Shown here in pieces: positions 1 through 1,614 of a DNA stretch of 4,939 nucleotides (position 1 is its first letter; each line of letters opens with the position of its first letter). The notes beneath the pieces are model-generated. The model was not told where the DNA came from. It worked only from the letters and a program-made list of their open reading frames with translations, and did no database searches. The position numbers and the translations under genes are program-made. Source of the DNA: a virus (Duplodnaviria > Heunggongvirae > Uroviricota > Caudoviricetes); the IMG/VR virus record IMGVR_UViG_2579778674_000008. One strand, 5' to 3'.

Positions 1-4
1 AGAC

Positions 5-24
5 TATCACTTATTTAAGTGATA
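5..24. repeat. Perfect inverted repeat TATCACTTA-tt-TAAGTGATA (9-bp arms, 2-bp spacer); function unknown, possible protein-binding site
   Basis: Read directly: positions 5-13 are the exact reverse complement of 16-24. It lies in AT-rich non-coding DNA at the left edge of the window. No functional assignment is possible from sequence alone. Confidence 0.4.
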
Positions 25-291
25 TTGGTTGTCTGGAGATTCAGGGGGCCAGTCTATTCAGATAAAAACTGTTATCTATGTATACTTTTAAACCCAATCT
101 GTGTAGAGTCTCTGCATAAGATAGTTTGCAGTTGCCGCTTCAGCTTGCGCCATAAACCGCCTGATTTTTGCTGCCACCTGTTAGCATTCCTGTATACCTG
201 AAACGACAATGTTTATCTACGAACTTTAAGAACACCCAAGATAAAAATTGTCAACTATATCATATATAACACATTACTAATTCGAGGCTAT

Positions 292-405
292 ATGAACAGC
301 ATACTGATAATCACATCTCTCCTTATCATATTCAGCATTTTTAGTCATGCCCTAATAAAATTAGGGATTGGCATATCCAATAACCCAGACAAAACCGATG
401 TATAA
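292..405 (+). CDS. Hypothetical small hydrophobic peptide (37 aa, predicted single transmembrane helix)
   Basis: Hand translation of ATG at 292 to TAA at 403-405 gives [42 protein letters not shown] Shine-Dalgarno-like motif sits at 284-287, 4 nt before the ATG. It is below the ORF-track length cutoff. The region is AT-rich, so a hydrophobic ORF could arise by chance. Confidence 0.3.
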
Positions 406-473
406 GTCAACATATCCTGAATCAGACATACAATATCGCAATGAAAATCAATAATATTTTAAGGAATATCTTC

Positions 474-707
474 ATGAAATCAAAAGACACCCTAAAGTGG
501 TTCCCTGCGCAGCTTCCTGAAGTAAGAATTATCCTAGGGGATGCTGTAGTGGAAGTAGCAAAACAGGGAAGACCTATCAATACCAGAACATTGCTTGATT
601 ACATTGAAGGAAACATAAAGAAAAAATCATGGCTGGATAACAAAGAATTATTACAAACAGCGATATCAGTTCTTAAAGACAACCAAAATTTAAATGGTAA
701 AATGTAA
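474..707 (+). CDS. ynaE: Small prophage protein of the YnaE/YdfK family (cold-shock-inducible in E. coli K-12), 77 aa
   Basis: The ORF-track protein from residue 12 (MKSKDTLKWFPAQLPEVRIILGDAVVEVAKQGRPINTRTLLDYIEGNIKK...NLNGKM) matches my recollection of E. coli YnaE (Rac) / YdfK (Qin), which sit next to pinR/pinQ. The ATG at 474 has an AAGGA ribosome-binding site at 461-465 (8-nt spacer), whereas the upstream in-frame ATG at 441 has none, so 474 is the preferred start. I cannot distinguish the Rac and Qin paralogs from sequence alone. Confidence 0.7.
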   Translation: MKSKDTLKWFPAQLPEVRIILGDAVVEVAKQGRPINTRTLLDYIEGNIKKKSWLDNKELLQTAISVLKDNQNLNGKM

Positions 708-1023: not shown

Positions 1024-1614
1024 ATGTCTCGAATTTTTGCTTACTGTCGGATATCAACGCTGGATCAGACCACCGAAAATCAACGCCGGGAAATCGAAAG
1101 TGCAGGTTTTAAAATCAAACCTCAGCAAATAATCGAAGAACACATTAGCGGCTCAGCAGCAACCAGTGAGCGTCCTGGTTTTAACCGGTTGCTTGCTCGC
1201 CTGAAATGTGGTGATCAATTGATTGTGACAAAACTGGATCGCCTTGGTTGTAATGCAATGGATATCAGGAAAACAGTGGAACAACTGACCGAAACAGGTA
1301 TCAGAGTGCATTGCTTAGCATTGGGTGGCATTGACCTGACCAGTCCAACAGGAAAAATGATGATGCAAGTAATTTCAGCAGTCGCTGAATTTGAACGAGA
1401 CCTTTTACTTGAACGCACTCATTCCGGGATAGTAAGAGCCCGCGGCGCAGGGAAACGTTTTGGTCGACCACCTGTGTTAAATGAAGAACAGAAACAGGTG
1501 GTATTCGAACGAATTAAGTCAGGTGTAAGTATAAGTGCCATTGCCCGGGAATTCAAAACCTCGCGGCAAACCATTTTAAGAGCCAAAGCAAAACTTCAGA
1601 CACCTGACATATAA
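1024..1614 (+). CDS. pin: Serine recombinase, Pin/Gin/Hin-type DNA invertase (PinR/PinQ-like), 196 aa
   Basis: The N-terminus [15 protein letters not shown] carries the resolvase/invertase catalytic motif (Arg9, Ser11). The C-terminus has a helix-turn-helix ([21 protein letters not shown]). The 196-aa length and the position next to tfa/stf match lambdoid prophage Pin invertases. I recognise the protein as PinR/PinQ-like from memory but cannot tell which paralog. Confidence 0.95.
1104..1122. promoter_or_regulatory. Inverted repeat AGGTTT-taaaatc-AAACCT inside the 5' part of pin; candidate Fis-binding / recombinational-enhancer element
   Basis: Read directly: 6-bp arms with a 7-bp AT-rich spacer, about 80 bp into the pin coding sequence. 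The embedded 15-mer GTTTTAAAATCAAAC fits the loose Fis pattern (G at -7, C at +7, AT-rich centre). Hin/Gin/Cin enhancers are known to lie within the first ~170 bp of the recombinase gene. The functional assignment is speculative. Confidence 0.2.

Follow-up and report, generated by a model that had tools for sequence, protein, structure and literature searches.

The ynaM module and its surroundings

The window, i.e. the whole stretch of 4,939 nt analysed in this study, belongs to a virus of the Caudoviricetes (IMG/VR record IMGVR_UViG_2579778674_000008) and contains a gene module located between an IS2 end and the tail-fibre genes of a Rac/Qin-type prophage (Table 1). The first gene of this module, ynaM/ynfT, is a 37-codon open reading frame (ORF) on the plus strand, which extends from the ATG at 292 to the TAA at 403-405 and encodes exactly the peptide that had been quoted in an earlier, model-made description of this DNA (the sequence-only reading). 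It is followed by ydfK/ynaE, a pinR/pinQ-type serine DNA invertase gene (pin) and, on the opposite strand, the tail-fibre genes tfa and stf, a gene order shared by the window and loci L001-L004, L017 and L019. The ydfK gene is the next gene after ynaM in approximately 95% of the sampled copies, and ynaM is almost always located 68-74 nt 5' of ydfK on the same strand. The pin gene, the third gene of the module in E. coli-type copies, is absent from Salmonella phage 118970_sal3. In this phage, as well as in phages mEp460 and Turner, the ynaM module is situated between int/att and the tail-fibre genes. The int/att-to-tail-fibre interval is the usual site of accessory 'moron' genes in lambdoid phages.

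Table 1. Coordinates of features in the ynaM region of the window.
Feature	Position	Strand	Basis
IS2 left end (terminal 56 bp), context only	1..56	-	100% identity to the stretch beside the IS2 transposase gene in L002
Upstream block GATAAAAATTGTCAA, possible promoter/UP element (inferred)	240..254	+	Conserved between clades
Shine-Dalgarno GAGG, 4 nt before the ynaM ATG	284..287	+	Read directly; kept in both clades
ynaM/ynfT CDS, 37 codons + TAA	292..405	+	ORF read directly; family models; K-12 identity
Codons 4-22, predicted membrane-spanning core	301..357	+	Kyte-Doolittle, Hessa scale, AlphaFold2 helix
Codons 25-36, 12-residue C-terminal tail	364..399	+	Near-identical across copies
ynaM-ydfK spacer, 68 nt, with ydfK Shine-Dalgarno sequence (TAAGGA, ~460-465)	406..473	+	Read from sequence
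ydfK/ynaE, 77 aa, 'cold shock protein YdfK'	474..707	+	RefSeq annotation
pinR/pinQ-type serine DNA invertase, third module gene in E. coli-type copies	1024..1614	+	Pfam Resolvase + HTH_7; RefSeq

The first base of the window that matches Rac/Qin-type prophages is base 57, located 235 bp 5' of the ynaM ATG. As one contiguous match, the exact IS2/prophage junction was found in none of the 5,426 complete E. coli genomes searched, and six complete E. coli genomes contain an IS2 end located 246 bp further upstream. The minus-strand side tail-fibre gene of the window contains a perfect 10-bp tandem duplication (CCAATCGCAA twice, 2381-2400), which is not present in L001, L003 and L004. The duplication causes a frameshift that replaces the last 30 amino acids of the side tail fibre by 11 amino acids and an early stop codon, and represents either a defective tail fibre or a sequencing error. 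Furthermore, a full-length match to the Rfam family IS009 (RF02111; 220.9 bits, gathering threshold 117) was identified on the minus strand at 1746-1944, which corresponds to the coding strand within tfaR.

Identity of the encoded peptide

The 37-amino-acid peptide is 100% identical to both YnaM (b4744) of the Rac prophage and YnfT (b4748) of the Qin prophage of E. coli K-12 (NC_000913.3). It matches the Pfam family PF23676 'Protein YnaM-like' with 96.2 bits (cut-off 27), covering residues 1-37 of 37, and the NCBIfam family NF041477 'YnaM/YnfT family protein' with 63.9 bits (cut-off 35), and is assigned to phrog_35882, a PHROG without described function. In RefSeq, the 292-405 stretch is labelled ynaM or ynfT (WP_120795384.1), with ydfK and pinR/pinQ as neighbours. 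From -60 to +420 around ynaM, the window DNA shows no difference to the Qin copy of K-12 and differs at five positions from the Rac copy, three of which are synonymous and located within the ORF. The same 37-amino-acid sequence has been printed for ynaM and ynfQ (now ynfT) by VanOrsdel et al. (2018, PMC6001520). The ORF at 292-405 is the already described ynaM/ynfT gene, which the annotation of E. coli K-12 has listed since 2018 and for which separate Pfam and NCBIfam families exist. As a small-protein gene that is missed by standard ORF lists and was recovered here from the raw sequence alone, it represents a useful positive control; as a discovery it carries little weight, the gene being already known and annotated.

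Several statements of the sequence-only reading can be assessed on this basis. The GAGG Shine-Dalgarno-like motif that it described is present at 284-287, 4 nt 5' of the ATG, and is conserved in both sequence clades of the gene (see below). Its proposal of a small membrane protein, one of several options listed, agrees with the identification as YnaM/YnfT, for which the family cut-offs are exceeded, the product has been detected in E. coli K-12 and a membrane span is predicted. The run of 'about 25 uninterrupted hydrophobic residues' is confirmed as hydrophobic and not as uninterrupted, with T8, S9, S15, S18, H19 and K23 lying inside it.

Conservation and selection

Two samples of ynaM copies were compiled from IMG/VR. 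A scan with a degenerate pattern of the C-terminal motif recovered 109 stretches, which together with other loci amounted to 126 copies (sample 1), and a scan anchored on the ydfK start, which is independent of the ynaM sequence itself and shares many loci with sample 1, provided sample 2. The 126 copies of sample 1 comprise 17 DNA haplotypes, which fall into two clades, termed E. coli type and Salmonella type. Salmonella-type peptides start with MDNTLIIISLL, as in Salmonella phage 118970_sal3.

Among the 17 haplotypes, the variable sites are distributed over the first, second and third codon positions as 8/6/19 (chi-square p = 0.012). Between the clades, which are only two and shallow, with approximately 23-28 substitutions available for these statistics, the annotated ynaM frame exhibits a pN/pS of 0.16-0.20 and contains no stop codons, whereas the other five frames over the same stretch have values of 0.39-4.8 and stop codons in every one. 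The ydfK control has a pN/pS of 0.14 and likewise lacks stop codons. In ynaM codons 2-25, which are outside the search pattern, pS is 0.59-0.65 and pN 0.13-0.19. The C-terminal tail (codons 25-36) is constant across the sampled haplotypes except for T35, which is replaced by S or I in two single copies, and is identical in every listed peptide variant of the ydfK-anchored sample, while synonymous differences between the clades affect at least five tail codons. The comparison of synonymous and non-synonymous substitutions that the sequence-only reading had suggested as a check thus favours a coding function, with low pN/pS restricted to the ynaM frame.

Stops or frameshifts in closely related sequences had been named in the same reading as evidence that would speak against the gene. 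The ynaM ORF is intact in 117 of the 117 ydfK-anchored copies with sufficient upstream DNA, and frameshifted ynaM was found in two copies, L014 (2319-2647, E. coli ECGI0523) and L016 (2276-2683, Shigella flexneri SFBU0723). In both of these ydfK is frameshifted too, while the flanking DNA still aligns well with intact copies, so that they represent decayed modules and provide no argument against ynaM being a coding sequence. As judged from these substitution patterns, the amino acid sequence of ynaM is under purifying selection, and its near-invariant polar tail hints at a specific interaction and not at the non-specific formation of pores. The two-clade pN/pS comparison, the constancy of the tail, the intactness of all 117 copies and the confinement of frameshifts to modules with a broken ydfK are new in this analysis.

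Upstream region and the neighbouring gene ydfK

Along the module, identity between the clades is 48% in the 120 nt upstream of ynaM, 76% in the ynaM ORF, 66% in the spacer and 80% in ydfK. Despite the low identity of the upstream region, both clades retain the Shine-Dalgarno sequence as GAGG(C/A/T)TATATG, and the motif and its spacing are preserved in the diverged Salmonella-type copies (GAGGATATATG). Similarity between E. coli-type and Salmonella-type copies begins at the GATAAAAATTGTCAA block and is lost further upstream. The similarity from this onset includes the Shine-Dalgarno sequence, and the block would likely mark the start of the functional unit and possibly a promoter or UP element of the ynaM-ydfK transcript; a consensus promoter scan gave no score for it. 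In the spacer between ynaM and ydfK, no terminator was predicted. The ynaE/ydfK promoters of a genomic SELEX paper map approximately 700-1000 bp upstream, outside the prophage, and have no bearing on ynaM.

For ydfK, an alternative 88-amino-acid reading from the ATG at 441 is unavailable in Salmonella-type copies, in which the first long ORF corresponds to the 77-amino-acid form, supporting the ATG at 474 as the start codon. YdfK/YnaE has no match in Pfam at E <= 1. A single-sequence model of YdfK forms a three-helix bundle (pLDDT 77.7), the best PDB match of which is YmgB/AriR (2OXL_A; Foldseek E = 0.07, probability 1.00, TM-score 0.66/0.81), and a sub-threshold NCBIfam match to YcgZ agrees with this AriR fold match. 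YdfK is not a CspA-type cold-shock protein and, on the basis of this tentative similarity, may be an AriR/YcgZ-like small regulator.

Predicted structure and membrane topology of YnaM

The most hydrophobic 19-residue Kyte-Doolittle window of YnaM comprises residues 4-22 (mean 2.52), for which the summed Hessa scale gives -1.83 kcal/mol. Using the single sequence, AlphaFold2 predicts one helix from residue 2 to residue 30 with a mean pLDDT of 88.7. YnaM would thus be a single-pass inner-membrane protein spanning the membrane with residues 4-22 in an N-out, C-in arrangement. This putative orientation follows from the N-terminus, which is without a positively charged side chain (and has Asp2 in the Salmonella type), and from the conserved Lys23 after the hydrophobic core, and it would place the conserved 12-residue tail at the cytoplasmic face. 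Through this tail, YnaM most likely binds and modulates a larger partner, in the manner of AcrZ, MgrB and MgtS. The searchable literature that mentions YnaM contains nothing on its function or on an interplay with the reported ydfK thermosensor.

Expression of YnaM in E. coli K-12

Chromosomally SPA-tagged YnaM and YnfQ/YnfT have been detected by immunoblot in E. coli K-12, and ynaM and ynfQ were noted as positive in a tetracycline ribosome-profiling screen (VanOrsdel et al., 2018, PMC6001520). YnaM-SPA was more abundant than the majority of the newly found small proteins (preprint by Weaver et al., 10.1101/511675), and according to the published blots, tagged YnaM accumulates in LB cultures in both growing and stationary cells (PMC6001520, 10.1101/511675). 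The 8-kDa SPA tag could stabilize an otherwise short-lived peptide. For YnaM, Weaver et al. did not observe a start-codon peak with retapamulin or Onc112 (10.1101/511675). Near-identical pairs such as ynaE/ydfK have been set aside or excluded in ribosome-profiling studies, and the two K-12 copies ynaM and ynfT do not differ between -51 and +23 relative to the start codon; the missing peak probably results from multi-mapping between these copies. The ribosome occupancy that the sequence-only reading had proposed to look for is reported for the tetracycline screen and not as a retapamulin or Onc112 start peak.

Distribution

The 211-bp stretch from 270 to 480 of the window has 3,396 occurrences in 2,806 of the 5,426 complete E. 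coli genomes, with at most three per genome, and every sampled row of these matches carries the annotation 'YnaM/YnfT family protein'. HMMER, run exhaustively on 1.84 billion representative proteins, returned four matches, all of which are members of the YnaM family or fragments or frameshift variants thereof, indicating that the family is narrow. YnaM is restricted to Escherichia, Shigella and Salmonella-type phages. PADLOC contained no match to YnaM and assigned it to no defence-system family. In a tblastn search against phages, only residues 23-37 of YnaM were aligned, presumably as a result of low-complexity masking, and the search was repeated locally without the filter. YnaM is a widespread, selected, prophage-borne predicted membrane peptide, which roughly half of the searched complete E. 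coli genomes encode.

IMG/VR provirus contigs (e.g. L129, L133 and L134) often have one of their ends precisely at the start codon of ydfK. These boundaries may have been set at called genes with ynaM remaining uncalled, in which case ynaM has been cut off in those records. Furthermore, contigs filed under Caldithrix, Alistipes, Draconibacterium and Chryseobacterium assemblies (L005, L007, L010 and L013) share 99-100% identity with the ydfK region of E. coli and most likely represent E. coli contamination or mis-binning.

Alternative explanations and proposed role

The sequence-only reading had left open that the ORF arose by chance, without function, in AT-rich DNA abundant in Ile, Leu and Phe codons. 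While the region is indeed AT-rich and rich in short ORFs, we reject this explanation as practically without probability: in 2,000 shuffles of bases 1-1023, an equally hydrophobic ORF of at least 30 amino acids occurred in only 1.35%, the substitutions favour the third codon position, the pN/pS of this frame is the lowest of all six, all 117 sampled modules carry an intact ORF and the protein has been detected experimentally. Another reading, judged by eye, takes residues 1-20 as a cleavable signal peptide (S-x-A at 18-20) and the remaining 17 amino acids as an exported peptide. Small residues at -3 and -1 (Ser18 and Ala20) are common to both clades in the form S-[H/Y/C]-A, and the hydrophobic stretch ahead of the putative cleavage site comprises approximately 14 residues; however, there is no positive charge in the N-terminal region, which has Asp2 in the Salmonella type, and both the hydrophobicity and the predicted helix run beyond this site to residue 30, rendering cleavage and export highly improbable. 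We also regard it as very unlikely that YnaM is a membrane-depolarizing type I toxin of the Hok/Ldr/TisB/PepG1 kind restrained by an antisense or nearby sRNA. Its size, its single hydrophobic helix and its prophage location are reminiscent of such toxins, a weak similarity to PepG1 was detected (E = 0.055), and a promoter-like sequence on the minus strand (483 to 456), matching 9 of 12 positions, could drive an antisense transcript. The PepG1 score of 13.1 bits is nevertheless far from the NCBIfam cut-off of 70, and no other toxin family was matched in Pfam, NCBIfam or PADLOC. An antisense sRNA, for which the sequence-only reading had advised a search of the opposite strand, has left no signal that could be predicted: bases 1-1000 match no Rfam family, the K-12 annotation lists no ncRNA at the ynaM or ynfT locus, the promoter-like matches are at chance level (7 observed vs 5.1 +/- 2.5 expected), terminator prediction gave no candidate, and the fold of the antisense strand is not more stable than that of shuffled sequence (z = -0.46). 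Predictions of this kind could miss an undescribed RNA. Tagged YnaM is comparatively abundant in both growing and stationary cells, unlike type I toxins whose translation is silenced. The accumulation in LB argues against such silencing, and the near-invariant polar tail suggests a specific interaction. The toxin option of the sequence-only reading finds no support.

A further option of the sequence-only reading was a leader peptide in the 5' region of ydfK/ynaE. As a mainly cis-acting element, translation of ynaM within the ydfK/ynaE leader would set the expression of ydfK, for instance by opening a helix between codons 10-14 of ynaM and the Shine-Dalgarno sequence of ydfK, and the peptide itself would be a by-product. 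The position is suitable, with the ynaM stop codon ending at 405 and the ydfK ATG at 474, i.e. 68 nt apart on the same strand. In addition, the minimum-energy fold of the E. coli type pairs window positions 320-332 with the ydfK Shine-Dalgarno region (duplex -9.1 kcal/mol), and across seven sequences from both clades this anti-Shine-Dalgarno helix can be formed in 94.8% of the cells compared with 42-58% in slid controls. The candidate helix was, however, derived from one aligned sequence, shows no covariation and has a duplex energy of only -5.0 and -4.1 kcal/mol in Salmonella types. The fold of the region is not more stable than that of shuffled sequence (z = -0.67), the consensus fold is weak (-12.6 kcal/mol) and contains no compensatory or covarying pair, and no terminator is predicted. 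Moreover, purifying selection extends along the whole peptide, its tail is near-invariant and the tagged protein accumulates. Leader peptides usually lack such conservation of their amino acid sequence. Selection at the amino acid level implies that the YnaM peptide is more than a by-product. The location upstream of ydfK stands from this part of the sequence-only reading, while an unconstrained peptide does not agree with the pN/pS of 0.16-0.20. In the literature, the upstream UTR of ydfK is referred to as an RNA thermosensor (Raghavan et al., 2011, as cited in PMC4444293), and prematurely terminated, Hfq-bound, sense-strand leader fragments of ynaE and ydfK have been described. Both reports are in favour of a leader; overall, we consider a predominantly cis-acting role of ynaM quite unlikely, while a secondary cis role could exist alongside the protein function.

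We consider it likely that ynaM/ynfT encodes a translated 37-amino-acid small protein of an accessory ('moron'-type) module, ynaM-ydfK(-pin), which is carried by Rac/Qin-type lambdoid prophages and related active phages in the interval from the attachment site to the tail-fibre genes. Expressed from the prophage, ynaM would probably be co-transcribed with ydfK, and the leader RNAs described in the literature suggest that both genes are located on one transcript. YnaM may act jointly with YdfK, a three-helix protein induced by cold and in stationary phase, although a functional link between the two proteins is speculation. A bolder and, in our view, unlikely scenario would combine the two levels: the published thermosensing UTR or attenuated leader of ydfK/ynaE would be a translated dual-function leader, in which ribosomes on ynaM contribute to controlling how accessible the ribosome-binding site of ydfK is, and YnaM, as a membrane peptide with a conserved cytoplasmic tail, and the AriR/YmgB-like three-helix protein YdfK would be paired in low-temperature, prophage-directed envelope signalling.

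Comparison with known systems

The closest counterparts of the gene are ynaM and ynfT of E. coli K-12, which encode the same 37 amino acids at the same place upstream of ynaE/ydfK and pinR/pinQ. The gene itself is no different from these, whereas the window differs in the IS2 end 235 bp upstream and in the 10-bp tail-fibre duplication. Like thermosensors of the cspA 5' UTR type, ynaM is located upstream of a cold-induced gene with a leader reported to sense temperature (as cited in PMC4444293). Unlike in leaders of this kind, the ynaM peptide is conserved and has been detected, and no conserved RNA structure involving the ORF was found. YnaM shares with Hok, Ldr, TisB and PepG1 the form of a short hydrophobic single-helix peptide, these toxins being often prophage- or plasmid-borne as well. 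In contrast to type I toxins, it scores below every toxin threshold, has no antitoxin RNA that could be found, accumulates, and is followed by a co-oriented gene. AcrZ, MgrB, MgtS, PmrR and KdpF are single-helix small inner-membrane regulators of 30-50 amino acids, which are stable proteins. YnaM differs from these regulators in being prophage-borne and has no sequence relationship to them, but is of the same size and predicted shape, and a specific partner is suggested by the conservation of its tail.
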